Shown: in pieces, positions 1-23,229 of the stretch
Position numbering within the stretch: the first letter of the stretch is position 1
Layout: every line of letters starts with the position of its first letter
Source: Enterobacteria phage phi80
Direction: 5' to 3' (one strand)
DNA length: 23,229 nucleotides
Sequence record: FN582354
Program-made: the position numbers and the translations under genes
Notes under the pieces: model-generated
What the model was told of the DNA's origin: nothing
What the model saw: only the letters and a program-made list of their open reading frames with translations
Database searches by the model: none

Positions 1-190
1 GGGGCGGCGACCTCGCAGATTCTCGCTATTTATGAAAATTTTCAGGCATTTGCCGTTTCCGTTCTTCTTCTCGCTAATTCATTGTTTTAACTGTAAACAC
101 CCCCTGAAAAGAAAGGAAATGATAAGCCTTAAAAACGGCTAAATAGCCAGAGGGCGTTTCCTTTCTCTGTTTTTGTGTATGGAGTGAGCT
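1..190 (+). other. cos: cos packaging region: left cohesive end (cosN half) followed by cosB with Nu1-binding R sites and an AT-rich IHF-like site
   Basis: Window begins GGGGCGGCGACCT, matching the lambda 12-nt cohesive end GGGCGGCGACCT with one extra G. CGTTTCC-type R motifs at 54-60 and 155-161 and an inverted GGAAA motif near 114-120 match the R3/R2/R1 layout of lambda cosB. Lies immediately upstream of Nu1. Comparison to lambda is from memory. Confidence 0.8.
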
Positions 191-736
191 ATGGAGGTCA
201 ACAAAAAGCGTCTTTCTGAAATATTTGGGGTCAGCGTGCGAACCATTCAGAACTGGCAGGATCAGGGAATGCCTGTAGCACGTGGCGGTGGAAAAGGTAA
301 TGAGGTCCTCTATGAATCTTCCGCGGCTATCGAATGGTATTCCGCACGCGACGCGGCGATTGAGAATGAGAAATTACGGAAGGAGGTGGAAGACCTTCGT
401 CTTGCATCGGAATCCGACCTTCAGCCTGGTACGATTGACTATGAGCGTCACCGCCTCACCCGAGCGCAGGCAGATGCCCAGGAACTAAAAAATGCAAAAG
501 ATTCCGCTGAGGTGGTGGAAACCGCATTCTGCACGTTCGTGCTGTCGCGGATGGCCGGAGAAGTAGCCAGCATTCTTGATGGAGTTCCTCTGTCGGTTCA
601 GCGGCGCTTCCCGGAGCTGGAAAACCGACATATTGATTTCCTCAAGAAGGACATCATTAAAGCCATGAACAAAGCAGCTGCGCTGGATGAAATAATACCG
701 GGGTTGCTGAGTGAATATATCGAACAGTCAGGTTAA
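191..736 (+). CDS. nu1: terminase small subunit Nu1
   Basis: 181 aa, same length as lambda gpNu1. N-terminus MEVNKKRLSEIFGVSVRTIQNWQDQGMP and C-terminus [11 protein letters not shown] are near-identical to lambda Nu1 (recalled). ATG at 191. Confidence 0.97.
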   Translation: MEVNKKRLSEIFGVSVRTIQNWQDQGMPVARGGGKGNEVLYESSAAIEWYSARDAAIENEKLRKEVEDLRLASESDLQPGTIDYERHRLTRAQADAQELKNAKDSAEVVETAFCTFVLSRMAGEVASILDGVPLSVQRRFPELENRHIDFLKKDIIKAMNKAAALDEIIPGLLSEYIEQSG

Positions 737-2633
737 GGGGCTGCAGCACTCTGCGCGCGCGGGTCTACTTTCGCTGTACCGACCTGAGCCGCAAACGGCG
801 GTTGAATGGGCAGACGATAATTACTATCTCCCCAAAGAGTCGGCCTACCAGGAAGGGCGCTGGGAAACGTTGCCGTTTCAACGCGCGATCATGAATGCGA
901 TGGGTAACGATTACATACGTGAGGTCAACGTTGTTAAGTCTGCCCGTGTTGGCTATTCAAAAATGTTGCTGGGTGTTTATGCGTATTTTATTCAGCACAA
1001 GCAGCGAAATTCCCTTATCTGGCTGCCTACTGATGGTGACGCCGAAAACTTTATGAAGTCGCATGTTGAGCCGACGATTCGCGATATTCCGTCACTTCTG
1101 GCGCTGGCCCCCTGGTATGGAAAAAAGCACCGGGACAATACGCTCAGTATGAAACGCTTCTCCAACGGTCGCGGGTTCTGGTGTCTGGGTGGTAAAGCGG
1201 CGAAAAACTATCGTGAGAAATCGGTCGATGTCGCCGGTTACGATGAACTGGCGGCATTCGATGAAGATATTGAGAAAGAGGGATCCCCGACGTTCCTGGG
1301 TGATAAACGTATTGAGGGGTCTGTCTGGCCCAAATCTATTCGCGGCTCAACGCCAAAAACAAAGGGGACCTGCCAGATTGAGCGTGCTGCCAGCGAGTCC
1401 GGGCATTTCATGCGTTTTCATGTTGCCTGTCCGCACTGTGGTGAAGAGCAGTACCTTAAATTCGGCGACAAAGAGACCCCGTTCGGGCTGAAATGGACAC
1501 CGGGCGAACCCTCCAGCGTCTTTTACCTGTGTGAACATAATGCCTGCGTCATTAAGCAGCAGGAGCTGGATTTCACTGAAGCTCGTTACATCTGCGACAC
1601 CACCGGGATCTGGACGCGCGACGGTTTATCCTGGTTTTCATCAACAGGCACCGAAATCGACCCGCCAGACAGCGTGACGTTTCACATCTGGACGGCATAC
1701 AGCCCGTTTACCACCTGGGTTCAGATCGTTAAAGACTGGCTAAAAACGAAAGGGGATACAGGAAAGCGTAAAACCTTCGTGAACACCACTCTGGGCGAAA
1801 CATGGGAGCCTAAAATTGGTGAACGGCCTGACGCGGAGCTCATGGCCGAACGCAAAGAGTTCTTCGGGGCATCCGTACCGGAGCGTGTTGCTTATCTGAC
1901 AGCCGGGATCGACTCCCAACTGGATCGATATGAAATGCGCGTCTGGGGATGGGGGCCCGGTGAGGAAAGCTGGCTGATTGACCGGCAGATCATTATGGGC
2001 CGTCATGATGATGAAGCGACCCTCGTCAGGGTGGACGAGGCGATTAACAAAACCTATCTCCGAAAGAATGGCGTGGAAATGTCGGTATCCCGTATCTGCT
2101 GGGATATCGGCGGTATTGACCCCACCATCGTCTACAACCGCTCAAAAAAACACGGTCTGTTTCGTGTGATCCCTATAAAGGGGGCGTCGGTTTATGGAAA
2201 GCCGGTGGCGAACATGCCACGCAAGCGTAACAAGAATGGTGTTTACCTCACAGAGGTAGGAACAGACACCGCAAAAGAGCAGATTTATAACCGTTTCACG
2301 CTGGTGGCGCAAAGAGACGAGCCGCTGGCGGGAGCGGTTCATTTCCCGAATAACCCAGAAATCTACGATCTAACAGAGGCCCAACAACTAACAGCTGAAG
2401 AGCAGGTGGAAAAATGGGTAGACGGAAAGAAAAAGATCGTCTGGGACAGCAAAAAACGACGAAATGAGGCGCTCGATTGCTTTGTTTATGCACTGGCGGC
2501 GCTGCGTATAAGCATATCCCGCTGGCAGCTTAACCTTGATTCACTTCTTGCCAGCCTGCTGGAGGAAGAAGGCACCCGTAACAATAACAAGACCCTGGCG
2601 GATTACGCGCGGGCATTGTCTGGAGAGGAATAA
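711..2633 (+). CDS. A: terminase large subunit A (ATPase/nuclease)
   Basis: 640 aa, GTG start at 711 overlapping the Nu1 3' end as in lambda. Sequence MNISNSQV...[12 protein letters not shown] is co-linear and highly similar to lambda gpA (recalled). Confidence 0.97.
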
Positions 2634-2839
2634 TGGCAACACAGACTGAACTGGATGCCGCGCGCGCTGCGTTACATGACCTGATGATGGGAAAGCGCGT
2701 GGCGACGGTACAGAAAGACGGTCGAAGAGTGGAATTTACAGCTACCTCAGTCACCGATCTCAAAAAGTATATTGCTGACCTTGAATCTCAGGTTGGTACC
2801 ACATCACGACGCCAGGGGCCTGCAAGGTTTTACGTATGA
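2633..2839 (+). CDS. W: head-tail joining protein W
   Basis: 68 aa, same length as lambda gpW. TAATG overlap with the A stop. Expected position between A and the portal gene. Confidence 0.93.
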
Positions 2840-4428
2840 AAATACCATCTTTAGTGGGTCCTGACGGGAAAACATCCCTCCGGGAATACGCGGGGTATCA
2901 TGGCGGCGGCGGAGGGTTTGGTGGTCAGTTGCGGGGCTGGAATCCACCAAGCGAAAGTGCTGATGCGGCTCTTCTGCCTAACTTCTCGCGCGGAAATGCC
3001 CGTGCTGACGATCTGGTCAGAAATAATGGCTATGCGGCAAACGCCGTGCAGCTCCACCAGGACCACATCGTCGGGTCATTTTTCAGACTCAGCTATCGAC
3101 CGAGCTGGCGCTATCTTGGCATCAATGAGGAGGATTCACGCGCATTTTCGCGGGATGTAGAAGCCGCCTGGAACGAGTATGCCGAGGACGACTTTTGCGG
3201 GATTGATGCCGAGCGTAAGCGAACGTTTACGATGATGATCCGAGAAGGTGTGGCCATGCACGCGTTTAACGGTGAATTATGCACGCAGGCGACCTGGGAC
3301 AGCGATTCAACGCGTCTTTTCCGTACTCAGTTCAAAATGGTCAGTCCGAAGCGCGTCAGCAATCCGAATAATATCGGTGATACCCGGAACTGTCGCGCCG
3401 GTGTGAAAATAAATGATAGCGGTGCTGCGCTGGGATATTACGTCAGCGACGATGGTTATCCCGGCTGGATGGCGCAGAACTGGACCTACATTCCTCGCGA
3501 ACTACCCGGCGGTCGACCTTCATTTATCCATGTATTCGAACCGATGGAGGATGGACAGACCCGTGGGGCCAATGCGTTTTACAGCGTGATGGAGCAGATG
3601 AAAATGCTCGATACCCTGCAAAATACCCAGCTCCAGAGCGCGATAGTGAAGGCTATGTATGCCGCTACCATCGAGAGTGAACTGGATACCCAATCGGCGA
3701 TGGACTTTATTCTCGGCGCGGATAATAAAGAGCAGCAGAGCAAACTTACGGGCTGGCTCGGTGAAATGGCGTCCTATTACTCAGCTGCGCCTGTTCGCCT
3801 GGGTGGGGCAAGGGTTCCACACCTGTTGCCGGGTGATTCTCTCAACCTTCAGTCGGCGCAGGATACCGATAACGGCTACTCGACTTTTGAACAGTCCCTG
3901 CTGCGTTATATTGCCGCTGGGCTTGGTGTGTCGTATGAGCAGCTTTCGCGAAACTATTCGCAGATGAGCTACTCGACCGCACGCGCAAGTGCTAACGAGT
4001 CCTGGGCGTACTTTATGGGGCGTCGCAAGTTTGTGGCATCCCGACAGGCCTGTCAGATGTTTCTTTGCTGGCTTGAAGAGGCGATTGTCCGCCGCGTGGT
4101 CACGCTTCCTTCGAAAGCCCGGTTCAGTTTCCAGGAGGCGAGAACAGCCTGGGGGAATGCCAACTGGATTGGCTCTGGTCGAATGGCAATTGACGGGCTG
4201 AAAGAGGTACAGGAGGCCGTCATGCTCATTGAGGCAGGTCTCAGCACGTATGAAAAAGAGTGCGCCAAACGCGGTGATGATTATCAGGAGATTTTTGCCC
4301 AGCAGGTCCGGGAAACCATGGAGCGTCGTGCTGCGGGTCTGAAACCACCGGCATGGGCCGCTGCAGCTTTTGAGGCCGGAGTGAAAAAATCAAACGAGGA
4401 GGAGCAAGATGGCGCACGAGCTGCGTAA
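2836..4428 (+). CDS. B: portal protein B
   Basis: 530 aa. ATGA start/stop overlap with W. Long stretches ([105 protein letters not shown]) match lambda gpB (recalled). Confidence 0.97.
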
Positions 4429-5752
4429 TCTTCCGCATATTGCCAGTATGGCCTTTAATGAGCCGCTGATGCTTGAACCCGCCTATGCGCGGGTTTTCTT
4501 TTGCGCGCTGGCTGGCCAGTTGGGCATCACCCGGCTGACAGATACCGTCTCTGGCATCACGCTTGATGCCGGACAAATAGCCGAACCGCTGGCGCTGTTT
4601 GGTGAGGATGATGACATGGATCCCCGTCCATCACGCAGCTATCAGGTGGCAAATGGTATCGCGGTCTTGCCGGTTTCCGGCACGCTGGTCAGTAAAACCC
4701 GTGCGCTTCAGCCTTATTCCGGGATGACGGGTTACAACGGGATCATTGCTCGCCTGCAGCAGGCAATCAGTGACCCCGGCGTTGACGGCATTCTTCTGGA
4801 TATGGATACGCCGGGTGGAATGGTGTCCGGGGCGTTTGACTGCGCCGACATTATTGCCCGTATGCGCGATATCAAACCCATCTGGGCGCTGGCCAATGAC
4901 ATGAACTGCAGTGCAGGTCAGCTTATTGCCAGTTCGGCATCGCGACGGCTGGTCACACAAACGGCCAGAACCGGCTCCATTGGGGTCATGATGGCGCACA
5001 GTAACTATGGCGCTGCGCTCAAAACTAACGGCGTTGAGGTCACGCTGATTTACAGCGGCGATCGCAAGGTCGACGGCAACCCTTACGAAAAGCTTCCGAA
5101 AGATGTGCGTGCTGATTTCCAGACGCGTATCGATGCCACTCGTCAGATGTTTGCCGAAAAGGTTTCCGCTTATACCGGCATGTCTGTTCAGGACGTGCTG
5201 GACACCGAAGCGGCAGTATTCTCCGGCCAGGAATCTTTGGATAACGGGCTGGCGGATGAACTTGTTAACAATACCGATGCGCTCGGCGTGATGCGCGAAG
5301 CACTCGACAGACGCAAAAAAACAACCCTTGGAGGAACTATGCCATCACCTTCTGCATCAGCTGTGACCACTAAGCCAGTTGACCAGGCAGCAACTCAGAC
5401 AACTGCATCAGCTGAACAGGCCACTACCGTTGACACGACAATTGCTTCCGTAGCAGCCCCTGTAGATGTCAGTGCGCAGGTTACTGCAGCAGTAGCTGCA
5501 GAGAATAGTCGCATCATGGGCATCCTGAACTGCGACGAGGCTAAAGGGCGTGAGTCACAGGCGCGAGCACTGGCCGAAACGCCGGGTATGACGGTAGAGA
5601 GCGCACAGCGCATTCTGGCTGCTGCACCGCAAAGTGCCCAGATGCGTACCGATACGGCGCTGGATCGTTTGATGGAAACAGCACCCGGTGCACTCCAAGC
5701 AGGTAGCGCATCTTCTGATGCCGCTGACGATTTGTTAAACACCCCCGTTTAA
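4409..5752 (+). CDS. C: prohead protease / minor capsid protein C (ClpP/S49-like)
   Basis: 447 aa. RBS GAGGAGG at 4397-4403. N-terminus [37 protein letters not shown] and C-terminus AAENSRIMGILNCDEA...DLLNTPV match lambda gpC (recalled). Confidence 0.95.
   Translation: MAHELRNLPHIASMAFNEPLMLEPAYARVFFCALAGQLGITRLTDTVSGITLDAGQIAEPLALFGEDDDMDPRPSRSYQVANGIAVLPVSGTLVSKTRALQPYSGMTGYNGIIARLQQAISDPGVDGILLDMDTPGGMVSGAFDCADIIARMRDIKPIWALANDMNCSAGQLIASSASRRLVTQTARTGSIGVMMAHSNYGAALKTNGVEVTLIYSGDRKVDGNPYEKLPKDVRADFQTRIDATRQMFAEKVSAYTGMSVQDVLDTEAAVFSGQESLDNGLADELVNNTDALGVMREALDRRKKTTLGGTMPSPSASAVTTKPVDQAATQTTASAEQATTVDTTIASVAAPVDVSAQVTAAVAAENSRIMGILNCDEAKGRESQARALAETPGMTVESAQRILAAAPQSAQMRTDTALDRLMETAPGALQAGSASSDAADDLLNTPV
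5147..5752 (+). CDS. nu3: possible nested scaffolding protein Nu3, in frame within the 3' part of C
   Basis: In lambda, Nu3 is translated from an internal in-frame start in C. Here the first in-frame ATG in the corresponding region is at 5147 (MFAEKVSAYTG...). No clear SD sequence, so the start is uncertain. Confidence 0.35.
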   Translation: MFAEKVSAYTGMSVQDVLDTEAAVFSGQESLDNGLADELVNNTDALGVMREALDRRKKTTLGGTMPSPSASAVTTKPVDQAATQTTASAEQATTVDTTIASVAAPVDVSAQVTAAVAAENSRIMGILNCDEAKGRESQARALAETPGMTVESAQRILAAAPQSAQMRTDTALDRLMETAPGALQAGSASSDAADDLLNTPV

Positions 5753-5761
5753 GAGGCTATC

Positions 5762-6094
5762 ATGGCAATTACTGAAGTTTTCACACATAACCAGCCGCTC
5801 GGTAACAGCGACCCGGCGCACACTGCGTATGGTCCTGGCGAACTGACGGCTTCCACTCCAGCCATGACGCCGCTCATGCTGGATGCCACTTCTGGCAAGC
5901 TGACCGTCTGGGATGGTGCTCATGCTGGCGCGGCAATGGGCATCCTGGCTGTAACCGCAGACCAGAACAGCGCGGAACTGGCATATTACAAATCTGGCTC
6001 TTTCCGTATTGAAGATGTCCTCTGGCCATCTGCCGTCACCGACGACAACATTAAACGTAACGCGTTCGCCGGTACTGCAATCAGCATCGTTTAA
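5762..6094 (+). CDS. D: head decoration protein D
   Basis: 110 aa, same length as lambda gpD. RBS AAGAGG at 5751-5756. Motifs [26 protein letters not shown] match lambda D (recalled). Confidence 0.96.
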
Positions 6095-6123
6095 TCCGCA
6101 TTTCTACAACCATCATCATTCAT

Positions 6124-6148
6124 AAAAGCCGCTTGCGCGGCTTTTTTT
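6124..6148 (+). terminator. intrinsic-terminator-like hairpin between D and E (GC stem, 4-nt loop, flanked by an A-run and a T7 run)
   Basis: Stem AGCCGC (6127-6132) pairs with GCGGCT (6137-6142), loop TTGC, followed by TTTTTTT (6142-6148). A near-identical hairpin is present at the same place in lambda (recalled). Confidence 0.5.
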
Positions 6149-6161
6149 ACGGGAAAAATCT

Positions 6162-7187
6162 ATGTCCGTTTACACCACTGCCCAACTGCTGGCGGTCAAT
6201 GAGAAGAAATTCAAATTCGATCCGCTTTTCCTGCGTATCTTTTTCCGCGAAACCTATCCCTTCAGTACAGAGAAGGTTTACCTGTCGCAAATTCCTGGCC
6301 TGGTCAATATGGCGCTTTACGTCTCGCCGATTGTCTCCGGCAAAGTGATCCGCTCCCGTGGCGGCAGCACGTCTGAATTCACGCCGGGTTATGTGAAGCC
6401 GAAACACGAAGTTAACCCACTGATGATGACTCTCCGCCTGCCGGATGAGGATCCGCAGAATGTCGCTGACCCGGTCTATCGCCGTCGCCGCATTATCCTT
6501 CAGAACATGAAGGATGAAGAGCTGGCGATTGCTCAGGTCGAAGAGAAACAGGCTGTTTCGGCGGTGCTCAGCGGTAAATACACCATGACCGGGGAAGCGT
6601 TCGAGCCTGTTGAAGTCGATATGGGCCGCAGCGCTGGTAACAACATTGTCCAGGCCGGTGCGGCTGCATGGTCAACCCGCGACAAAGAAACGTATGACCC
6701 GACCGATGACATTGAAGCCTACGCGCTCAACGCCAGAGGTGTGGTCAACATCATTGTGTTCGATCCGAAAGGCTGGGCGCTGTTCCGTTCCTTCAAGGCT
6801 GTTGAGAAGAAGCTGGATACGCGTCGTGGTTCTAACTCTGAGCTGGAAACTGCCGTGAAAGACCTGGGTATGGCTGTTTCATACAAGGGGATGTTTGGCG
6901 ATGTGGCAATCGTGGTGTACTCCGGCCAGTACGTCGAAAACGACGTCAAAAAGAATTATCTGCCGGACCTGACAATGGTGCTGGGGAATACCCAGGCTCG
7001 TGGCCTGCGTACCTATGGCTGCATTCTTGATGCTGATGCCCAGCGCGAAGGTATCAATGCCTCGACACGCTACCCGAAAAACTGGGTGCAGTCGGGGGAT
7101 CCGGCGCGCGAATCCACCATGATTCAGTCAGCTCCGCTGATGCTGCTGCCAGACCCTGACGCATTCGTCTCCGTCAAACTGGCATAA
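6162..7187 (+). CDS. E: major capsid protein E
   Basis: 341 aa, same length as lambda gpE. Near-identity over long stretches (YTTAQLLA, KVYLSQIPGLVNMALYVSPIVSG, NIIVFDPKGWALFRSFKAV, MVLGNTQARGLRTYGCI) recalled from lambda E. Confidence 0.97.
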   Translation: MSVYTTAQLLAVNEKKFKFDPLFLRIFFRETYPFSTEKVYLSQIPGLVNMALYVSPIVSGKVIRSRGGSTSEFTPGYVKPKHEVNPLMMTLRLPDEDPQNVADPVYRRRRIILQNMKDEELAIAQVEEKQAVSAVLSGKYTMTGEAFEPVEVDMGRSAGNNIVQAGAAAWSTRDKETYDPTDDIEAYALNARGVVNIIVFDPKGWALFRSFKAVEKKLDTRRGSNSELETAVKDLGMAVSYKGMFGDVAIVVYSGQYVENDVKKNYLPDLTMVLGNTQARGLRTYGCILDADAQREGINASTRYPKNWVQSGDPARESTMIQSAPLMLLPDPDAFVSVKLA

Positions 7188-7212
7188 ATTCGTCTCCGTC
7201 AAACTGGCATAA
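7163..7212 (+). repeat. perfect 25-bp tandem direct duplication (2 copies) spanning the E stop codon
   Basis: ATTCGTCTCCGTCAAACTGGCATAA occurs at 7163-7187 (last 7 codons of E plus TAA) and again, exactly, at 7188-7212. Confidence 0.9.
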
Positions 7213-7257
7213 CTTCCCCCAGTGGCCCTGTCGGGCCACCTTTCTGGAGTATTTCCC

Positions 7258-7674
7258 ATGACAGAGAAAGAAAAGCTGATCGCTCGCCTGAATGACCTTG
7301 GCACTCAGCTTAACCGCGAGGTCAGCACCAGCGGCACGATTCAGGAACTTACGATGCGTATTGCTGAGCTGGAAGAGGAGCTGGATGGTGATGCCAGTTC
7401 GATTGACGGTGAAAACGGAGAGAAGAATGCTCCCGACAGCACCGACAGCACCGACAGCACCGACAGCGATGTAGATGGCACGGAAAAAGTAAAAACCGAA
7501 GCGGTCACAACGGATGACCGGGTATCAGTAGAAACGCTGGTGACCTTGCACATAAACGCGCTTCACGCCACGCGTAACGAGTCTGTGTCTATTGTCGAGC
7601 CTGGTGTCGTTATCCGCGTGACTGACGTAGAGGCTAACGACCTGATATCTCGGGCGCTGGCCCGGGAAATCTGA
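7258..7674 (+). CDS. FI: DNA-packaging / head assembly protein FI
   Basis: ATG at 7258 with GGAG 8 nt upstream. N-terminus MTEKEKLIARLNDLGTQLNREVS and the ...LVTLHINALHATRNE... region resemble lambda gpFI (recalled). The track ORF starts at an upstream GTG (7222), which I consider less likely. Confidence 0.85.
   Translation: MTEKEKLIARLNDLGTQLNREVSTSGTIQELTMRIAELEEELDGDASSIDGENGEKNAPDSTDSTDSTDSDVDGTEKVKTEAVTTDDRVSVETLVTLHINALHATRNESVSIVEPGVVIRVTDVEANDLISRALAREI
7435..7467 (+). repeat. 9-bp tandem repeat (GACAGCACC, about 3.7 copies) encoding a (DST)n linker inside FI
   Basis: GACAGCACC at 7435-7443, 7444-7452 and 7453-7461, then a partial copy GACAGC at 7462-7467. Translates to DSTDSTDSTDS. 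Confidence 0.85.
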
Positions 7675-9786: not shown

Positions 9787-10218
9787 ATGTTTTCGAAAAA
9801 AGAGAAGTTCACCTGGCAAACAGAATCCCTGACCATCTTCGAACTGTCGGCGCTTCAGCGTATTGAGTTCCTGACGTTTATGGCCGCAGAGGAAAGGGCC
9901 GTCAGTGCTGACAGCGAGGGCATCAGCGATCAGGAAATGACGGCCAGGCTGATTGGCTCAAATATTCGCTGCGGTGCGCGTTTGATCGCGATGTCTTTGT
10001 GGCATAACGATCCGGCCGGCACGGATGTGGAAACGTTATATCAGCAGGTGCTGAGCGGCTGGCCGCCGGAGGCGATCGGTAAAGCAGAAATGGAAATAAA
10101 GCTGCTCTCCGGCATGCTCGTTCCGGTTGATGAAGACAACGCTGCCGATCCAGATGGCTCAACGGAGGCCGAAAGCGCAGAAACCGTTACGGCGGAAAAG
10201 CCCTTGCCAGCGAGCTGA
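9787..10218 (+). CDS. G: tail assembly chaperone G (zero-frame product)
   Basis: 143 aa, between V and H. Motif [10 protein letters not shown] matches lambda gpG (AMSLWHN). Ends just past a slippery heptamer. Confidence 0.9.
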   Translation: MFSKKEKFTWQTESLTIFELSALQRIEFLTFMAAEERAVSADSEGISDQEMTARLIGSNIRCGARLIAMSLWHNDPAGTDVETLYQQVLSGWPPEAIGKAEMEIKLLSGMLVPVDEDNAADPDGSTEAESAETVTAEKPLPAS

Positions 10219-10541
10219 AGTTTGTCCTGAATCTGGCGCGCGAGTTCGGGCGACCCGACTGGCGCGCCATGCTGGCTGGAATGACCTCCAGTGAGCTGGG
10301 CGACTGGCACCAGTTCTACCGGGATCATTATTTTCAGGACGCGCAGCTCGATGCGCATTTCTCAGAGCTGCTTTATTCCATCTCCACTCTTTTCTTCCGC
10401 GATCCGGAACTTACCCCCGCACATTTCAGCCTGCTTTCTCCTTCGGATAGCGTCATCAGCGATGATGAGCCGGATGATGACACGCTGATGACCGCCGCCG
10501 AGGGGATCACAGGAGGTATCCGATATGGCCCAGCAGATTAG
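9787..10541 (+). CDS. GT: tail assembly chaperone G-T fusion made by programmed -1 ribosomal frameshift near 10194-10200
   Basis: The -1 frame is open from 10134 (stop TGA at 10131-10133) to the stop at 10539-10541. After the shift it encodes ...[21 protein letters not shown]...GGIRYGP, matching the lambda gpT part of G-T (recalled). G is in frame 1 and T in frame 0, consistent with a -1 shift. Confidence 0.75.
10194..10200 (+). other. candidate -1 frameshift slippery heptamer G GAA AAG (lambda uses G GGA AAG)
   Basis: Only X-XXY-YYZ-like site inside the 85-nt window where both the G frame and the T frame are open (10134-10218). The AAG Lys codon re-pairs to AAA. The P-site GAA to GGA re-pairing needs a G:U pair, so the heptamer is non-canonical. 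Confidence 0.55.
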
Positions 10542-13500
10542 CGATCTGGTTATTAAGCTGGATGTTGACCGCGCCACCTTCAGCGAGCAGGTCGCCCGAA
10601 TCAAAGGGCAACTGACAGGAATGGCGGATGAGTCTGATAAAGTTCAGGCGCGAATGCAGCGTGCAGCGGACCGTCAGAGCGCGGCATTAAAGAGCGTGGG
10701 CGACGCTGGCGCGGCGGCTGCCGCAGATATGAAAGCCCGACAGTCTGCTGCAACGGAAGGGCTGGCCAAAGACTGGCAGAACGTTTCTAAGTCCGTTGAT
10801 GAAACTCACCGCCGCGTGACCGAGCTTAATCAGCGTATGCGGGAAAATGACGGACAGGCCGCAGCGCTTGCCCGCCGTCAGGATGAACTGGCGGCATCCT
10901 TTTTCCGCCAGATTGACGGCGTTCGCCAGCTCAATGGTGAAACGCAGTCGCTTGCGAACGTGCAGGCGCGCTTTCGTGCGGCAAGGGCACAGGGCAATAT
11001 CACCCAGCAGGATTATCTCGCCCTGATTTCCCGCACCACGGCCAGGCAAAAAGAGCTGCAGATCATAGAGGAAAAATCGGCCGCCGCGCGTACCCGATTC
11101 CTCAGTCAGCTGAAGCAACAGGTCGCAGAGCAAAAACTCTCCGGTACCGAGTTGCTGCGCATGAAGGCGGCGCAGGTTGGTGCAAGCGATGCGGCTGAGG
11201 TCTATATCCGCAAGCTCGAGGCTGCCAAAGTGGCCACGCACGGTCTGGGCCTGAAAAGTGCCGCAGCGCGGCAGGAACTGGGGATACTGATCGGCGAGGT
11301 CATGCGCGGTAACTTCGGTGCACTGCGCGGCTCCGGGATCACGCTGGCGAACCGGGCAGGATGGATAGACCAGCTGCTGTCGCTGCGCGGGCTTGGGATC
11401 GCCGGCATGGTTGGTGGTATTGCCGCGGCGGTTTACGGGCTGGGTAAAGCCTGGTATGACGGCAGCAAAGAGTCCGAGGAATTTAACAGGCAGCTGATCC
11501 TGACCGGGAATTACGCCGGGAAAACGTCCGGACAGCTACAGGCACTGGCGCGCTCACTGGCAGGTAATGGCATCACACAGCATGCTGCTGCAGGTGTGCT
11601 GGCGCAGGTTGTCGGAAGTGGTGCGTTTAGCGGTAATGATGTCAGCATGGTGAGCAATGTTGCTGCCAGGCTGCAGCAGGCAACCGGGCAGGCCGTCGAC
11701 GAAACCATCAACCAGTTTAAACGCCTGAAGGATGATCCGGTTAATGCAGTCACAACGCTCAACGATTCGCTGCATTTTCTGACGGCCACGCAGTATGAAC
11801 AGATTGCCTCTGCTCAGGCGATGGGAGATACGCAGAAAGCATCAGAGCTTGCCATGCGCGCATATTCTGATGCGGTCATTCAGCGGGCCGGGGCGGTTGA
11901 GGAAAATCTTGGCTCCCTCGAAAAAGCCTGGAACTGGGTGAAGAATGCGGCCTCAGGCGCGTGGGATGCGATGCTGGGCATAGGGCGTAATCCTGACACC
12001 GCGATGAAGCGCCAGGACTCTTTTGCTGAATGGCAGGCAGCAGAGAAAGAGTACCGTGCTCTGTCCGGCAATCTCAAGGTTGATCCGGACTATGCCGGTA
12101 ACAACGTTCTGCAAAAGGCAGATGCGGAAAGGCTGAGAAACGCGCGCCAGCAGGTAGAGCTTAAGAAGCAGGCTTACGATCTTGCCGATAAGCAATATGC
12201 CCAGGAAGGGCTGGCAGCTGCCAGGGAAAAAATGCGGACGGAACAGCAGACACAGGCAGTCCGGACCCAGCAGCAATTTAATCAGATGGTTGAATCCGGG
12301 GCGACGGCGGCAGAAAAACGTGCCCTTGCGGAGAAAAAACTCAATCAGCTTATCGCTAAAAACCGCCAGGATGCGAAAGACGGCATCGCCACGTTGTGGA
12401 CTGAAAAGGACATAGCGGCAGCACGCGCCGGTATTAAAAAGAAGTGGAAGGATCCCAAAACGCCGAAAGGCAAAAGCTATTCAACGCCAGCCGGGGATAA
12501 AGCTGAAGAAAAAGCGCAGGCTGAACTTCTCACCCTTCAGGCCCAGCTTAAAACGCTCGAGCAGCATACCAGCGTAAACGACGTCATAAGCAAACAGCGT
12601 CAGGATCTCTGGCAGACTGAAAATCAGTTCACCGTTCTGCAGGAGGCCGCTGGGCGTCGTCAGCTTACGGCGCAGGAAAAATCCCTGCTGGCGCACAAGG
12701 AAGAAACGCTCGAGTACAAGCGGCAGCTGGCCGACCTGGGCGATAAGGTTGCCAGGCAGCAAAAGCTCAACCAGCTGACCGACCAGGCCGTGAAGTTTGA
12801 GCAGCAGCAAAAAGCCGCCAGGGCGGGCCTGCAGGCTCAGTCTGAGGGGCTATCCACCCGCGAGGCCGGGCGACAAACCACCCTGCAACGTCTCAGCGAG
12901 AGCTATTCATATAATCCTCAGGCGCAGCAAAAGGTTCTGGAAGAGCAAAGGGCGACGTTCGAGGCTGAAGATGCCCTGCGCGCAAACTGGCTGGCCGGTG
13001 CGAAACAGGGCTGGGCCGAATATCAGGATTCAGCGACAAACGTTTTCAGCTCCGTTCAGCAGATTTCGCAGGCAACGTTCAGCGGGCTGGCTGGCCAGCT
13101 TACCAGCCTGACGACAACCGGGAAGGCGAGCTTCCGGGACTTCACCAGCTCAATCCTCAAAATGATTGTGTCCGTTATCAACCAGCTGCTGGTGGCTTAC
13201 ACCATCCAGAGCGCAATGGGCTGGGTGAGCGGCGGGGCGAAAGCCTCCTCTGCAGGTCAGTCATTCGCGGTCCAGTCATACCGGCCACAGGGTTTTGACG
13301 TGGGCGGTTTTACCGGGCACGGCGGCAAGTACGAGCCAGCCGGTATCGTTCACCGCGGGGAATTCGTCTTCACCAAAGAATCAACCAGCCGCATCGGCGT
13401 GGCTAATCTCTATCGCCTGATGCGCGGGTATGCCTCGGGTGGTCTGGTCGGCGGCGGGAACGCAGCCGGTGCTGGCATGGGCGGGATTAGTGTTTATGCC

Positions 13501-13662
13501 CCAGTCAGCATCAGCCAGCAGGGGAGTGACGGAAGCATAAATCAGGCGAACGCCACGGGGACGGCGAAACAGCTGCAGGCGATTGTTCAGCAGACAATCA
13601 CCGAGCGACTGAAAAAAGAAATGTCCGCGGGCGGCGTGCTTTATTCGAGGAGGACACAGTGA
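10525..13662 (+). CDS. H: tail tape measure protein H
   Basis: 1045 aa. RBS AGGAGG at 10511-10516. Long alanine/glutamine-rich, coiled-coil-like sequence with a glycine-rich C-terminus ([22 protein letters not shown]...), typical of lambdoid tape measure proteins. Position between G-T and M. Confidence 0.95.
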
Positions 13663-13997
13663 CGGACACGTTTACCTGGCGCACGCGAAAAACAGCGCAG
13701 GGCACTGAAACAGCCCGAACGCTGCAGGCCCAGTTCGGGGATGGCTACAAACAGATAGCGGGGATGGGGATCAACGACAAACAGGAAACGTGGAACCTGG
13801 ACTGGACGGGCACCAGACAGGAGGCGGCTGCGCTGCGCGCTTTCCTGATGTCTCACGTTACTAAATCGTTCTGGTGGACCACTCCATGGGGTGAAAAAAA
13901 GCTGTTCAGAATGAAGGCCGATTCGTTCAGCGTTTCTTTCCCTACCGGGAAAAAAGCCACTGTGGCCTTCACTTTTGAACAGGCGTTCGCGCCCTGA
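13659..13997 (+). CDS. M: minor tail protein M
   Basis: 112 aa. GTG start overlapping the H stop (GTGA), RBS GAGGAGG upstream. Motifs FGDGY, WNLDW and WWTTPWGEK parallel lambda gpM (recalled). Confidence 0.92.
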
Positions 13998-14016
13998 TTT
14001 TCTCGAAAAACACTGA

Positions 14017-14042
14017 AAGCTGCCTCCGGGCGGCTTTTTTTT
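14017..14042 (+). terminator. intrinsic-terminator-like hairpin with T8 tract in the M-L intergenic gap
   Basis: 7-bp stem AGCTGCC (14018-14024) pairs with GGCGGCT (14029-14035) with one G:U, loop TCCG, followed by eight T (14035-14042). L starts at 14054. Confidence 0.5.
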
Positions 14043-14053
14043 ATGGGGGGAGT

Positions 14054-14791
14054 ATGAGTTTTACGGCAGACATACAACAGCTTGAGCCCGGCAGCGTTAT
14101 TCAGCTGATTGAGATCGACGGCACTGAATTCGGTATGGATCAGGTGCTGCGTTTTCATGCGCACAATATTCAGGAAGAGGGGTGGGCAGCCTTCGCCGCA
14201 GAAAATCTGCCCGCCATTATCTGGCAGGGAAACCAGTACGATCCCCATCCCTACGAACTTAAGGGGATGGAGTTATCGAGTACAGGTTCCCAGCCAACGC
14301 CCACGCTGTCCGTCGGGAACGTCGGAAACTATGTCACCGCGCTGTGTCTTGAATATGACGATATGGTCAGGGCTAAGGTCAAAATCCATACCACGCTTTC
14401 GAAGTATCTCGATGCCGCCAACTGGAAAAACGGTAATCCGGGTGCCAGCCCGGCCGATGAGCGCGTACAGCTCTTTTACGTCAATGCCAAAACCGCAGAG
14501 ACGCGTGTACAGGTTGATTTCGAGCTGTGCTCTCCTTTCGATATTCAGAGCCTGCAGCTGCCGACACGGCAGATTACGCCTGTCTGCACCTGGTGTATGC
14601 GGGGCTGGTACCGAAGCGGGACTGGATGCGATTACAACGGCACGAAATACTTTACCAAAGACGGTACACCGACCGATGACCCGTCGAAAGATGTATGTGG
14701 CGGCCCGCCGCAGGATTGTCAGGATCGTCACGGCCCGGACGCGCCGCTGCCGTTCGGCGGTTTCCCGGCTGCAAACCTGCAGGGGAAATAA
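14054..14791 (+). CDS. L: minor tail protein L (tail tip complex)
   Basis: 245 aa. RBS GGGGGAG upstream. Cysteine-rich C-terminal region (CTWCMRGWYRSGTGCDYNG...CGGPPQDCQDRHG) and overall pattern resemble lambda gpL (recalled). Confidence 0.92.
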   Translation: MSFTADIQQLEPGSVIQLIEIDGTEFGMDQVLRFHAHNIQEEGWAAFAAENLPAIIWQGNQYDPHPYELKGMELSSTGSQPTPTLSVGNVGNYVTALCLEYDDMVRAKVKIHTTLSKYLDAANWKNGNPGASPADERVQLFYVNAKTAETRVQVDFELCSPFDIQSLQLPTRQITPVCTWCMRGWYRSGTGCDYNGTKYFTKDGTPTDDPSKDVCGGPPQDCQDRHGPDAPLPFGGFPAANLQGK

Positions 14792-16122: not shown

Positions 16123-16150
16123 TGAAAATGCAACATAATAAGGATGAACG

Positions 16151-16178
16151 TTACATTGCAATCACCCTTGGTTATCAT
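16151..16178 (+). promoter_or_regulatory. candidate sigma70-type promoter for the I-J moron (-35 TTACAT, 16-bp spacer, -10 TATCAT)
   Basis: Hexamers read by eye in the AT-rich segment just downstream of the I stop. Not statistically scored. Confidence 0.3.
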
Positions 16179-16203
16179 GTCCAAAACGATGCCGATCAAG
16201 GAG

Positions 16204-16662
16204 ATGAAAGTGAAAAAATACGGTTTGGTCTTATTAGGTGTGCTCTTTATTTCAGGTTGTGCCCCACAAAATCAGAATAACAATTTACAAAAGCAATACG
16301 CTGATTTGGCAAATTGTCAAGAGGATAACATTACTATGCCAAAACAAATGCCGCATAGTAAAAAAGAGTTTGCTGAATTTTTATCTAAGGAAGCTCTTAA
16401 TGCCTCAGCAGATCAGTTCGTTACCCAGAAGCGTATAGAGATTCTGCAATTAGTTGGGTGGGATAATTCGGTTGCTGATGCAATAACGACATGTGGCGCT
16501 ACCAGAAAGAGCAAGCTGAAAGAAATTGGGTCTAATGTGTTTGAAACCATGAAAGCCAATACTAAAGACACAGAGGAACGTCGTGCTCTTGTTGAGGCTT
16601 ATAGTTCGTGGGAAGCTTATGTAACCAGTCAAACGCCACTCGCAAAACAGGACTTTGACTAA
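16204..16662 (+). CDS. moron-encoded lipoprotein of unknown function, inserted between tail genes I and J
   Basis: Signal peptide with lipobox: MKVKKYGLVLLGVLFISGC followed by APQ. AAGGAG at 16198-16203. Start is either ATG 16204 or GTG 16210; the track ORF begins further upstream at 16144. Mature part is about 135 aa, hydrophilic and helical-looking, with 2 Cys. Region is visibly AT-richer than the flanking tail genes. Confidence 0.7.
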   Translation: MKVKKYGLVLLGVLFISGCAPQNQNNNLQKQYADLANCQEDNITMPKQMPHSKKEFAEFLSKEALNASADQFVTQKRIEILQLVGWDNSVADAITTCGATRKSKLKEIGSNVFETMKANTKDTEERRALVEAYSSWEAYVTSQTPLAKQDFD

Positions 16663-16717
16663 AAAGTTAGTTATTACAAAAACATGTAATAAGACGCCAT
16701 CATTAATATTAACTAAT

Positions 16718-16741
16718 AACCCAGCTCAGGCTGGGTTTTTT
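16718..16741 (+). terminator. intrinsic terminator downstream of the moron lipoprotein gene
   Basis: Stem CCCAGC (16720-16725) pairs with GCTGGG (16730-16735), loop TCAG, followed by TTTTTT (16736-16741). Lies 13 nt upstream of the J start. Confidence 0.6.
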
Positions 16742-16753
16742 AATGGGGTAAAA

Positions 16754-19700
16754 ATGCAACTTCTCCATGGTGAAACCATCATACAGGGTGCAAAAGGGGG
16801 CGGTGGAAGCGCGCATACTCCGGTTGAGCAACCTGACGATCTGCTGTCGGTCGCAAAATTAAAAATGCTCATTGCCGTTTCTGAGGGAGAAATACAGGGC
16901 GACCTGACCGCTCAGAATATTTTCCTCAACGATACGCCGCTGGCAAACGACAGCGGGGAATACAACTTCAGCGGCGTGAAATGGGAGTTCCGTAAGGGCA
17001 CACAGGACCAGACCTATATTGCCGGGATGCCCCAGGTCGATAACGAACTGGCGGTTGGCACAACTGTCACCACCACCGCGCCCTGGACACGCCAGTTTAC
17101 CAATCTTTCCCTGGATGCTATCCGCATCAAGCTCAGCCTTCCGGTCCAGTATCTCTATAAAGATAACGGCGATATGGTGGGCACGGTCACCGAGTATGCG
17201 ATCGATTTATCAACGGACGGCGGCGCCTGGAAAACGGTTGTAAACGGCAAATTTGACGGAAAGACCACGACGGAATATCAGCGTGACCACCGTATCGATC
17301 TGCCAAAATCCACGTCCGGCTGGTCTGTCAGGGTCAGGCGTATTACGGCTGATGCCAGCGGATCAAATTCGAAACTGGTTAACGCCTTCAAGGTGTTTTC
17401 CTATGCGGAAGTCATCGACAGCAAGCTTCGTTATCCTTTAACCGCGCTCCTGTATGTCGAAGTGGACAGCAGCCAGTTCAACGGCAGCGCGCCGAAAGTG
17501 ACCTGTAAGATAAAAGGCAAGCTGATTAAGGTTCCGGATAATTACGATCCGATAACCCGAACCTATTCTGGCTCATGGTCCGGCGGGTTCAAAATGGCCT
17601 GGTCCAATAACCCCGCCTGGATATTTTACGATCTGGTTCTGGATGAAATTTACGGCATGGGCACGCGCGTGGATGCGTCCATGGTGGATAAGTGGGCTCT
17701 GTATTCAATCGCCCAGTACTGTGACGAAATGGTTTCCGACGGGGCCGGTGGCACCGAACCGCGTTTCACCTGCAACGTTTTCATTCAGAGCCAGGAGGAC
17801 GCCTGGCAGGTACTTAACGATCTCGCCGCGGTATTTCGTGGAATAACGTTCTGGGGCAACGATCAGATTTATGTCCAGGCAGACGTCCCGCAGGACGATG
17901 TTGACTGGGTTTATAACGCCTCAAATGTGATCGATGGGCTGTTTACTTATGCGGGCGGCTCATACAAGAATCGCTACAGCTCCTGCCTGGTGTCCTGGTC
18001 CGATCCGCAGAACCATTACAGCGATACCGTTGAGGGGGTTTACGATTCGGCGCTTGTAGAACGTTACGACGTCCGGCAGACGTCCCTGACCGCAATCGGC
18101 TGCACCTCGCAAAGTGAAGCGCACCGACGCGGTCGATGGGTATTGCTCTCCAATGCCAAAGACGGGACCGTATCGTTTGGCGTGGGGCTGGACGGTTATA
18201 TCCCTTTGCCCGCTGAAATTATCGGTGTCGCCGATCCTTTCCGTTCCGGCAAGGAGAACGGGGGACGCATCAGGGCGGTCAATGGCCGCCAGATTACGCT
18301 GGATCGAGAAATAGACTACGCGGCGAAAGACCGGCTGGTGGTTAACCTGCCTGACGGAAAAGCCCAGACGCGCACAATCAGCGCGGTGAGCGCAGATAAA
18401 AAAACGGTGACGGTGGCCACCGCATTTAGTCAGGCACCTGTGGCGGGTGCTGTCTGGGCGATAGACAGTGATAACCTCGCAATACAGTATTTCCGGGTCA
18501 CTTCAATTGCAGCTAACGACGACAGCACAGGCGGTTTCACTATTACGGCCGTTCAGCACGATCCAAACAAATACCGTTACATCGATGACGGCGTTCGGGT
18601 CGAGTCGCCCCCGATCACCGTCACGCCGATAAGCGTCCTGTCAGCGCCGAAGAATATCGTGGTGACTGAGAGCGATCATGTTTCACAGGGGCTGACGGTA
18701 GCAAGCCTGGACGTGTCATGGGATAAGGTAGAGGGCGCAATCCGGTACGTTGCCCAGTGGCGTAAGGACAACGGGGACTGGATAAACGTTCCGGTTACCA
18801 GCGCGCAGGGTTTCTCGGTTCAGGGCATTTATTCGGGCAGCTATGACGTGCGCGTCCGGGCGCTGAATGCGCAGGATACGTCGTCACCATGGGGGTACGG
18901 TGAAACAACTTATCTCTCCGGTAAAACGGGAAAACCGGGTACTCCGCTCAACTTTCTGGCGACCGAAGATGTGGTCTGGCATATCGACCTGACCTGGAAA
19001 TTTCCGGATGGCTCTGGCGACACGGCCTATACAGAGATTCAGCGCGCCACAACTGCCGACTACGCCAATCCTGAACTGCTGGTCCTGGTGCCGTACCCGG
19101 CTGCAGATTATCAGCATGGCCCCATGCCGGCCGGCGTTCGCCAGTGGTACCGCGCACGCCTGATTGACCGTATCGGTAACGCCGGGGACTGGACCGACTG
19201 GATCATGGGCACGTCCTCGATAGATGTCAGCGAAATAACTAATGACATTCTGGAGGATATGAAAGAGTCGGAAACGTTCAAAGACCTGATCGAGAACGCG
19301 GTGGACAGCAACGAAAAAATTGCTGGCATGGCTGACGAAATCAAAAACCATGCCGACGAGCTGGAGCAGCAGGCGAAAGATATACAGGAAAACGCTGACG
19401 GGCTGGCGCAGGCGGCGGTAAAAATCGATGAGATTTCCGTTTCAATGGACGGTATGACAGGAGGCGTGAAGAATTCGGCAATTGCGATAATCCAGAATGG
19501 GCTGGCGCAGGTTGTCAGTCGTCGTTCCCAGACAGCAACAAACGCCGGGAACAGTGCCAGTATAGACAGAGTGGATACTACGATTGCCGATACCAGCCAG
19601 GCGGTTGCTCGCGCGCTGGTGACGCTGGATGCTTCAGCTGGTGGGAATATCTCCAACTCTACCGATCTCACTGAAACTCTGGCCGATTTCACGCAGGCAT

Positions 19701-20233
19701 CGGCGACAAAAATTAACACCCTGACTGTTAAATCTGGCGAAAACAGTGCCGCGATAAATGTCAACGCACAGGATATCGCAGATGTAAACGGTAACCTAAG
19801 TGCGATGTACAACATCAAGGTTGGTGTCTCCAGCAATGGACAGTATTACGCCGCGGGGATGGGTATCGGCGTGGAGAATACGCCATCCGGCATGCAGTCG
19901 CAGGTTAGCTTCCTGGCTGACCGCTTCGCCGTCACCACGGCAGCCGGAAATAGCGTAGCTTTGCCGTTCGTGATCCAGAACGGGCAGACATTCATCCGGG
20001 CCAGCTTCATCCAGGACGGCACTATCAGCAACGCAAAGATTGGTAATTTTATCCAGTCGAACAATTATGTTGCTGGTTCTGCTGGCTGGAAGCTTGATAA
20101 AGGGGGGACGTTTGAGAACTACGGTTCGACTGCTGGTGAGGGAGCCATGAAACTGACAAATCAGACGATCAGCGTCAAAGATGGCAGTAATGTTCTTAGG
20201 GTGCAGGTTGGCCGATTAACGGGAGTATTCTGA
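16754..20233 (+). CDS. J: tail tip / central tail fibre protein J (host specificity protein)
   Basis: 1159 aa from ATG 16754 (the track ORF starts upstream at 16655, inside the moron terminator region). N-terminal two thirds are co-linear with lambda gpJ (recalled). Examples: KGGGGSAHTP versus lambda KGSSKGHTP, YDPITRTYSG, NNPAWIFYDL, KWALYSIAQYCDEMVSDGAGGTEPRFTCNV, FRVTSIAANDDSTGGFTITAVQHDP. C-terminal third is an expanded coiled-coil-like region. The protein ends without an obvious lambda-type receptor-binding domain. Confidence 0.93.
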   Translation: MQLLHGETIIQGAKGGGGSAHTPVEQPDDLLSVAKLKMLIAVSEGEIQGDLTAQNIFLNDTPLANDSGEYNFSGVKWEFRKGTQDQTYIAGMPQVDNELAVGTTVTTTAPWTRQFTNLSLDAIRIKLSLPVQYLYKDNGDMVGTVTEYAIDLSTDGGAWKTVVNGKFDGKTTTEYQRDHRIDLPKSTSGWSVRVRRITADASGSNSKLVNAFKVFSYAEVIDSKLRYPLTALLYVEVDSSQFNGSAPKVTCKIKGKLIKVPDNYDPITRTYSGSWSGGFKMAWSNNPAWIFYDLVLDEIYGMGTRVDASMVDKWALYSIAQYCDEMVSDGAGGTEPRFTCNVFIQSQEDAWQVLNDLAAVFRGITFWGNDQIYVQADVPQDDVDWVYNASNVIDGLFTYAGGSYKNRYSSCLVSWSDPQNHYSDTVEGVYDSALVERYDVRQTSLTAIGCTSQSEAHRRGRWVLLSNAKDGTVSFGVGLDGYIPLPAEIIGVADPFRSGKENGGRIRAVNGRQITLDREIDYAAKDRLVVNLPDGKAQTRTISAVSADKKTVTVATAFSQAPVAGAVWAIDSDNLAIQYFRVTSIAANDDSTGGFTITAVQHDPNKYRYIDDGVRVESPPITVTPISVLSAPKNIVVTESDHVSQGLTVASLDVSWDKVEGAIRYVAQWRKDNGDWINVPVTSAQGFSVQGIYSGSYDVRVRALNAQDTSSPWGYGETTYLSGKTGKPGTPLNFLATEDVVWHIDLTWKFPDGSGDTAYTEIQRATTADYANPELLVLVPYPAADYQHGPMPAGVRQWYRARLIDRIGNAGDWTDWIMGTSSIDVSEITNDILEDMKESETFKDLIENAVDSNEKIAGMADEIKNHADELEQQAKDIQENADGLAQAAVKIDEISVSMDGMTGGVKNSAIAIIQNGLAQVVSRRSQTATNAGNSASIDRVDTTIADTSQAVARALVTLDASAGGNISNSTDLTETLADFTQASATKINTLTVKSGENSAAINVNAQDIADVNGNLSAMYNIKVGVSSNGQYYAAGMGIGVENTPSGMQSQVSFLADRFAVTTAAGNSVALPFVIQNGQTFIRASFIQDGTISNAKIGNFIQSNNYVAGSAGWKLDKGGTFENYGSTAGEGAMKLTNQTISVKDGSNVLRVQVGRLTGVF

Positions 20234-21616: not shown

Positions 21617-22873
21617 ATGCTTTATAACACCGGCACCATCGCCATTAATAGAAATACCGCCACCGGGACGGGTACAAACTGGACGGCACCGGCCAGCCAG
21701 GTTCGCGCTGGCCAGACAATTATCGTGATGTCTAACCCGGTGCAACTGTTCCAGATTTCATCCGTGAACAGCGCCACGTCAATGACGGTTACGCCTGCCG
21801 CTTCCCCGGCGCTGAGCGGCCAGAAGTACGGCATTCTGGTATCAGATAATATCTCGGTTGATGGGCTGGCGCAGGCCATGTCGCAGCTTATCAAGGAGTA
21901 TGACGAGAATATTGGTGCGTGGGAGACGTTCGCCACAACCTCAGCCAACCAGAACATTACCGTTACGATCAATGGCACCAGTTTATCAATCCCGGCTCTT
22001 GGGAAATTACTGCAGAAGGGGAGCAACGGAGCTTTGCCGGTTAATCAAGGTGGTACTGGCGCACCCTCGGCATGGGAAGCCACAAAAAATCTAAAAACAT
22101 TAAGGACGATGGAGCGAAGATTTGGACCAGGTGATGAGCCAAGAGATGGCGGCTGGTCCAATACTATTGGTTTTGTGGTGGGGCAAACGTCCACAGGGGC
22201 AAATGGAGCGTTTGTTGATTTTACAAGTTTCGATCAGTCGGCCAGGCTACAGATCATTGGTTTTTATTCTGACTCTCAAAACCACAATGGTGTCGGGTAT
22301 AATCTGTGGCATCCCAACTTACAAACATGGTATCCATTCACAACGCTCAGGGATAACAGAAACACAACCGTAGATTCGAACGGTTTCATAAAGGTTGCAT
22401 CTCCCATTGTAAAGATATTCAGGGATGGTAGCTATGAAACGAATGAAGAGTCGGAGGGAATTGATGTTACCCACATAAATACAGGTGAGTATTTGATAGC
22501 AGGTTGCACCGGCCTTAATGCAGATGCAGCATGGGGAGGGATCGATGGTGGATTTGAAATTCCGGTAGACAGGAACAAGCTCGCGCGCATCTGGCTTGAT
22601 TATGAAGTGAATGCTGATGGCTCTGTTCTGGTAAAAACATATCACCGTACACACCCGAAAGCGCCTGAGTTTGCAAGAAACGAAATCAACGGGTTAACTA
22701 ATGGCGAGCCAGTAGACATTCCTGCAGATTCTTTTGTTTCCGCACGTGTTGAAATGCCCCCAGAAAGTATCTGGAACCAGCTTTCCGTACGTGTTGAAAT
22801 GCCACCAGATAGTATCTGGAACCAGCGACAGAATGATGCTTTGGAAGCAGACGTGCAGAAACCTACCTCATAA
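21617..22873 (+). CDS. putative side tail fibre / receptor-binding protein (Stf-like position)
   Basis: 419 aa from ATG 21617, GGAG 6 nt upstream (the track ORF starts at 21602). Thr/Asn/Gly-rich, fibre-like N-terminal half (NRNTATGTGTNWTAP..., NITVTINGTSLSIPALG, NQGGTGA). C-terminal half is visibly AT-richer and contains a 45-bp tandem repeat. Assignment rests on composition and position, not recognised identity. Confidence 0.6.
   Translation: MLYNTGTIAINRNTATGTGTNWTAPASQVRAGQTIIVMSNPVQLFQISSVNSATSMTVTPAASPALSGQKYGILVSDNISVDGLAQAMSQLIKEYDENIGAWETFATTSANQNITVTINGTSLSIPALGKLLQKGSNGALPVNQGGTGAPSAWEATKNLKTLRTMERRFGPGDEPRDGGWSNTIGFVVGQTSTGANGAFVDFTSFDQSARLQIIGFYSDSQNHNGVGYNLWHPNLQTWYPFTTLRDNRNTTVDSNGFIKVASPIVKIFRDGSYETNEESEGIDVTHINTGEYLIAGCTGLNADAAWGGIDGGFEIPVDRNKLARIWLDYEVNADGSVLVKTYHRTHPKAPEFARNEINGLTNGEPVDIPADSFVSARVEMPPESIWNQLSVRVEMPPDSIWNQRQNDALEADVQKPTS
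22737..22826 (+). repeat. 45-bp tandem direct repeat (2 copies, 3 mismatches) inside the 3' end of the fibre-like gene
   Basis: TTTCCGCACGTGTTGAAATGCCCCCAGAAAGTATCTGGAACCAGC at 22737-22781 versus TTTCCGTACGTGTTGAAATGCCACCAGATAGTATCTGGAACCAGC at 22782-22826. Encodes SARVEMPPESIWNQL / SVRVEMPPDSIWNQR. Confidence 0.85.
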
Positions 22874-22912: not shown

Positions 22913-23080
22913 CAGGCTGGCGTTCGTTCGATAGTGCGAGTATTGAATGATTTCCAGCCGTTACCGATTTTACTATGTTTTCAGTAGAACGCTTAGACAA
23001 AACTGAGGCGCACAAAAGCTTTGCACTGGACTGCAAGGTGTTGTGCTTCTCTGGAGTGCGATATGTTTGATGACAAAAAA

Positions 23081-23115
23081 TTAGCGCAAGAGGACAACAA
23101 ATCACCTTGCGCTAA
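23081..23115 (+). repeat. perfect 10-bp inverted repeat with 15-nt spacer in the AT-rich non-coding region
   Basis: TTAGCGCAAG (23081-23090) and CTTGCGCTAA (23106-23115) are exact reverse complements. The repeat lies inside a possible 27-codon ORF (23063-23146). Confidence 0.5.
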
Positions 23116-23229
23116 TGCTCTGCTACAGGTCACTAATACTATCTAAGTAGTTGATTCATATGACTGGATATGTTGTGTTTGTCGCATTATGTAGTCTATT
23201 TTTTAGACTAAAGATATTGTAATGCATTG

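Follow-up and report, generated by a model that had tools for sequence, protein, structure and literature searches.

The second copy of a 25-bp unit that stands twice in tandem at the end of the major capsid gene E in record FN582354 is probably an unmerged overlap or primer duplication from sequence assembly, and not a feature of φ80. The duplication was private to this record, the record was error-prone, and it contained a second join-type duplication; we infer that a primer or contig overlap was the cause. An assembly artefact had been mentioned only as a caveat when the DNA was read without database searches (the sequence-only reading), and it is now the best explanation.

The window (the whole stretch of DNA analysed, 23,229 nucleotides) is the left arm of φ80. 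It aligned with the φ80 reference JX871397 from cos on with a one-base offset and 99.7% identity over 22.8 kb, and exact look-up of its E and Z proteins returned CBH95059.1 and CBH95062.1, both labelled Enterobacteria phage phi80. The former, an exact protein match to E, is entered as 'gpE; Major coat protein [Enterobacteria phage phi80]'. The record is an early partial φ80 sequence, extending from cos nearly as far as the attachment site. It was public by 2010, as a paper of January 2011 lists CBH95068.1 as a BLAST hit, and it predates the complete φ80 genome. A literature search for a paper describing the record found none, and that BLAST hit was the only mention. The 25-bp duplication is already in the deposited record and was not added later. 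The features at its site are as follows.

6162..7187, + strand: gene E, an ORF for the λ-E-type major capsid protein of 341 aa, annotated so in φ80 JX871397
7163..7187, + strand: copy 1 of the 25-bp unit, formed by the final 22 nt of E and its TAA, counterpart of the single copy of the relatives
7188..7212, + strand: copy 2 of the 25-bp unit, the extra 25 nt, untranslated, opposite a 25-nt gap in JX871397, XL10-Gold and JCL301

Identical 25-mers, each ATTCGTCTCCGTCAAACTGGCATAA, occupied window positions 7163-7187 and 7188-7212, which confirms the earlier description of an exact tandem duplication at the E/FI junction that includes the stop codon. Tandem Repeats Finder called the repeat at 7163-7216 (period 25, 2.2 copies, score 101), and no exact tandem duplication in the window exceeds it in length. 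By chance, an exact tandem copy of 25 nt would be expected ~23,229 x 4^-25 times in 23 kb, or ~2e-11, so that the copy did not arise by chance. Copy 1 consists of the final 22 nt of gene E plus its TAA (ORF 6162-7187). The repeat is broken at both edges, with C at 7162 versus A at 7187 and C at 7213 versus A at 7188; the unit therefore has one phase and ends at the last base of the stop codon, the array holds exactly 2.0 copies, and the microhomology at the junction is 0 nt. The unit (44% GC, Tm ~57 C) is of primer length and, read on the reverse strand as TTATGCCAGTTTGACGGAGACGAAT, begins at the stop codon; the k-mer spanning the two-copy junction is CTGGCATAAATTCGTCTCC. No restriction site was found at either boundary in the window sequence, and no tag, marker, recombinase scar or other foreign sequence was found between or beside the copies in the sequence or in alignment A1.

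Relatives were compared for one versus two copies, a check proposed earlier, and all of them were single-copy. The JX871397 reference and the prophages of XL10-Gold and JCL301, which are three independent φ80 sequences, carried one copy, as did ~30 related E. coli prophages, mEp237, HK225, N15, an Enterobacter phage and 17 IMG/VR contigs. The 501-nt query was matched over a span of 476 nt in 8/8 phage records and in 35/35 full-length matches from complete E. coli genomes, indicating that each matching genome or record has a single copy. Alignment A1 was single-copy in φ80, XL10-Gold, E. coli MSB1_9D, mEp237, HK225, E. coli SZQ1 and an 86%-identical Enterobacter phage, and the E 3' end was single in λ, N15 and three more distant λ-like phages. 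When the unit was matched with up to four mismatches, it occurred once in every fetched locus that contained it (26/26) and twice in the window. The 24-mer across the two-copy junction had no matches in IMG/VR, species-representative genomes or JGI metagenomes. As a control, the 24-mer across the single-copy junction was found in 17 IMG/VR contigs, so the two-copy negative in IMG/VR is informative; in the species-representative genomes the single-copy 24-mer also gave no match, and the two-copy negative there is thus uninformative. Searches of phages, genomes, IMG/VR and metagenomes yielded no second independent sequence that would speak for heritability of the two-copy state. The duplication had been considered recent. 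This stands insofar as no other φ80 sequence or relative has it, and an artefact now explains that privacy best.

The accuracy of the record was evaluated by base-by-base comparison. JX871397, XL10-Gold and JCL301 agreed with one another at 32/32 sites that differ in the window, including the 25-nt gap. About 30 differences were private to the record, C at position 7114 being the only one found in another sequence. The private differences include adjacent-base swaps (TC/CT, CG/GC), complemented bases (AA/TT, TT/AA, GTT/CAA) and pairs of 1-nt indels that compensate each other within 3-20 nt (6427-6433, 14706/14709 and 14879/14898). There were no differences in 1-6426, 9795-14705 and 16143-19772, and such clumping is as expected of patches of poor sequence. 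In gene E, the invariant ...NPLMTLRRLPDED... becomes ...NPLMMTLRLPDED..., and two further residues are changed: the differences at 6427-6433, 6462 and 6737 turn residues 89-91 from TLR to MTL, residue 101 from L to V and residue 192 from S to R. At each altered position, φ80 and 13/13 cluster relatives (from Salmonella, Klebsiella, Enterobacter, Citrobacter and E. coli) have the other residue. Judging from this comparison, the changes at residues 89-91, 101 and 192 are probably sequencing errors. A mutagenised stock was also considered as the source of the differences in the record and was rejected, because a spectrum of swaps, complements, transversions and compensated indels is not that of biological mutation.

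Only two strong tandem repeats were detected in the window, the 25-mer and a 45-bp array; the reference has neither, and it shares six weak repeats with the window. The 45-bp array is located as follows.

22737..22826, + strand: second private tandem duplication, 45 bp x 2, in the tail-fibre gene, absent from JX871397, XL10-Gold and JCL301

This duplication is in frame (15 aa). Its copy 2 is the same as the reference, and its copy 1 carries 3 mismatches in 23 nt after 1.7 kb free of differences. An error-bearing copy 1 followed by a reference-identical copy 2 points to a low-quality read end that was butted on the next read without being merged. The record demonstrably contains at least one join-type false duplication, the 45-bp array. 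A natural two-copy repeat in the tail-fibre gene was rejected, as the only two φ80 prophages that match the region are each single-copy.

The right end of the window, 22978-23229, is not φ80, the reference having dinL there. It showed 97% identity with HK106 and 88% with λ, represents the sib/attP P-arm and stops ~28 nt before the attP core. The best matches to 22978-23229 in complete E. coli genomes were at 96-97%, none higher. The switch from φ80 to HK106-like sequence lies inside a 78-nt stretch common to both phages. Taken from these identities, the sequenced phage appears to be a hybrid, or else the record a chimera.

In the preferred reading, the assembly artefact, two pieces overlapping by 25 nt at the end of E would have been concatenated end to end and not merged. 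The overlap would most simply be a primer, for PCR or sequencing, sited at the E stop codon, and TTATGCCAGTTTGACGGAGACGAAT appears to match the design of a reverse primer for amplifying gene E. The blunt junction, the ending of the unit on the stop codon and its primer-like character favour an artefact over a biological duplication; ~40 placements of a 25-nt unit at the junction would keep E intact, so that the stop-codon end is estimated to be a ~1-in-40 coincidence. False tandem duplications at contig or amplicon joins are alike in presence in a single record, a blunt junction and a length typical of a primer or short overlap, and the presence of a second such duplication and of many error-type differences is a further likeness. 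The case is unlike them in having no base-calling errors beside the join: the 25-bp copies are perfectly identical and no errors cluster there, unlike in the 45-bp array. An error-free join fits a primer overlap and a real recent duplication equally well. What weighs against an artefact is the C at 7114 shared with φ80dlac, which points to a real φ80 laboratory lineage of its own, one that could hold mutations found nowhere else. The extra 25 nt could be assigned to no biological family, and they fit the testable features of an unmerged-overlap artefact.

It is unlikely, though worth weighing, that the sequenced laboratory stock of φ80 itself carried a real, recent and spontaneous 25-bp duplication that was neutral or mildly harmful. 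The exactness of the repeat would agree with this, as would the derivation of the record from a distinct φ80 lineage. With C at 7114, residue 318 of E is Ser, whereas T (Phe) stands at this position in the φ80 reference and all relatives. The φ80dlacZΔM15 remnant of DH5α and DH10B shares this C, which indicates that the record stems from a genuine classical φ80 lineage, and the base is a real marker of classical φ80 stocks versus the 'Lula'-type reference. Such a phage would be viable, since copy 1 keeps E and its stop while the hairpin, the Shine-Dalgarno and the FI start are untouched, and a stop-containing unit would be among the few 25-bp duplications tolerable in the dense late operon. 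On the other hand, the duplication was absent from all independent φ80 sequences and all relatives examined, other parts of the record are demonstrably unreliable, the end of the unit coincides exactly with that of the stop codon (~1 in 40 by the above estimate), and the junction has no microhomology.

RecA-independent rearrangements in E. coli normally use junction microhomology. The sequence-only reading had attributed the duplication to replication slippage or illegitimate recombination, and this attribution was not borne out, as these processes normally leave microhomology and the 25-bp junction has 0 nt. A TTC...TTC repeat nearby would predict a junction of GCATAAC with TTCG; the observed junction joins GCATAA to ATTCG. 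The slipped-strand and microhomology duplications of the lacI and T4 rII hotspots are likewise exact head-to-tail copies of a short segment. Unlike them, the ancestral unit of the window is not flanked by a direct repeat, and the 25-bp duplication was found in no second isolate. The junction of φ80dlacZΔM15 (DH5α, DH10B, JM83) is likewise a rearrangement at the E 3' end, 33 nt upstream of the 25-bp unit. In 57 complete genomes, including those of DH5α, DH10B, NEB 5-alpha and HST04, φ80 sequence ends inside E at window position 7130 and is followed by cynS-cynX-lacA. This φ80dlac junction arose by illegitimate recombination across a 16-nt overlap with cynS (PMC11148124). While that junction has its 16-nt overlap, is well documented and is present in 57 genomes, the 25-bp duplication has neither an overlap nor a second occurrence.

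The consequences that a real duplication would have depend on the region between E and FI, whose features are as follows.

7222..7239, + strand: GC-rich hairpin GTGGCCC-TGTC-GGGCCAC between E and FI, with a stem invariant in alignment A1
7258..7674, + strand: gene FI, DNA-packaging chaperone, 138 aa from ATG, with Shine-Dalgarno GGAG at 7246-7249

The E-FI junction is ordinary and already annotated in relatives. In λ, N15, HK225 and φ80, a stop codon is followed by a GC hairpin and then by the ribosome-binding site of FI; hairpin, Shine-Dalgarno and FI start of the window agree with those of φ80, and the junction sequence is identical to that of φ80 apart from the extra 25 nt. The E-FI gap is 70 nt in the window versus 45 nt in φ80 and N15 (41-51 nt in the relatives, 41 nt in λ), the hairpin lies 38 nt after the E stop with the duplication versus 13 nt without it, and FI is shifted out of the E frame into the +1 frame. 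The earlier suggestion of an altered E/FI spacing thus stands as a description (45 to 70 nt), and it would be of consequence only in a genuine two-copy phage. The 45-nt spacer of φ80 and N15 contains no stop and keeps E and FI in one frame; this frame relation is probably a coincidence, given that the λ spacer is 41 nt. The hairpin is kept in other sequence with compensatory differences (ATGGCCC-TTCG-GGGCCAT in λ and GGGGGC...GCCCCC in PhiR12_1). The annotations of HK225 and N15 call it a rho-independent terminator; the hairpin tail is only CTTTCT, and a simple terminator scan called 0 terminators. JX871397 annotates FI from a GTG inside the hairpin, and the RefSeq FI starts at the ATG 36 nt later.

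RNA folding (window 7150-7270; L001 7149-7244) predicted that the last E codons (UCUC-C-GUCA..UGG..ACUUC) pair with the Shine-Dalgarno and start of FI (GGAGU..CCAUGAC-A-GAGA). In the fold predicted for two copies, it is the untranslated copy 2 that pairs in this way. The z-score of the wild-type fold was -2.1, and among λ-like phages no more than 5 bp of the pairing are conserved. In a covariation check of this pairing, the paired columns were nearly invariant and say nothing either way. The predicted fold suggests a translational coupling of E to FI that the duplication would weaken; if the coupling reading holds, wild-type ribosomes finishing E would open the FI start. It follows from a real pairing that an untranslated copy 2 would tend to lower FI expression, which argues against a real duplication. 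That the duplication is genuine in one φ80 stock, with copy 2 taking over the modelled pairing and partly uncoupling or lowering FI, is considered quite improbable. Should such a two-copy stock exist, it would offer a naturally occurring test of whether FI is coupled to E in λ-like phages; a real duplication would otherwise be a private and probably mildly deleterious mutation, whose interest would lie solely in giving access to this coupling.

A scar of engineering is highly improbable; here a constructed or hybrid φ80, made for instance to clone or replace E or the region after it, would have kept a second copy of a primer or homology arm of 25 nt that reaches to the end of the E stop. It would account for a primer-sized unit that begins exactly at the stop codon on the reverse strand, and the HK106-like or λ-like attP arm at 22978-23229 would suit hybrid DNA or a chimeric record. 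Nothing foreign, such as a restriction site, tag, marker or recombinase scar, was found between or beside the copies, however, and the switch from φ80 to HK106-like sequence within the shared 78 nt fits ordinary homologous recombination and lies 15.7 kb away.

The E reading frame and protein are untouched by the duplication. The two TAAs had been thought to be in register; they are 25 nt apart, 25 mod 3 is 1, and the second TAA lies in the +1 frame of E. Reading through the first TAA would add 35 codons (a 35-aa tail) up to a TGA without meeting the second TAA, and a +1 shift in E would end at the second TAA as ...SSPSNWHKFVSVKLA*. Both are mechanical outcomes of the sequence, with no sign that either is used. 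The last E codons (GAC GCA TTC GTC TCC GTC AAA CTG GCA TAA) contain no slippery heptamer X XXY YYZ, and no Rfam match was found at the E/FI junction. Programmed extensions of the T7 10A/10B type have a slippery heptamer or leaky stop context conserved in relatives, which the E end of the window lacks. The C-terminally extended capsid protein proposed earlier is therefore not supported: there is no slippery heptamer, the duplication is not in relatives and the E protein is unchanged.

There is next to no likelihood that the duplication is a functional element, either a programmed frameshift or read-through that extends the capsid C-terminus or a regulator of FI expression. The predicted pairing of the E 3' end with the FI Shine-Dalgarno and start codon would lend itself to the latter, and its part TTCGT/CATGA is kept across λ-like phages, but without covariation. 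A duplication found in no relative cannot be a conserved element, and the lack of an X XXY YYZ site, the out-of-frame second TAA and the lack of an Rfam match also stand against it. Judged from this distribution, the functional reading appears effectively refuted already, since none of the relatives carries the duplication. Two further origins were dropped, a restriction-site or cloning junction because neither boundary has a site, and a transposon target-site duplication or excision footprint because the copies abut (0 nt between) and the unit is 25 bp; target-site duplications are typically 2-14 bp and flank an inserted element or its remnant.

The 25-bp duplication is thus most likely not a real feature of φ80, and its significance is one of data quality. 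The record is unfit as a φ80 reference, as it contains the 25-bp and 45-bp duplications, compensated frameshifts in capsid and tail genes and a non-φ80 right end, and proteins derived from it, such as CBH95059.1, carry its errors in protein databases.

Several smaller peculiarities of the window were also recorded. A private indel at 8104 leaves a TAT codon missing in the Z-like gene, the compensated frameshifts at 14706/14709 and 14879/14898 lie in the L- and K-like tail genes, and single-base insertions at 16125 and 16142 at the start of morF result in a shorter morF ORF. Within FI, a perfect 9-nt x 3.9 repeat, CCGACAGCA, at window positions 7433-7467 encodes DSTDSTDSTDS, and the φ80 reference has this repeat too.
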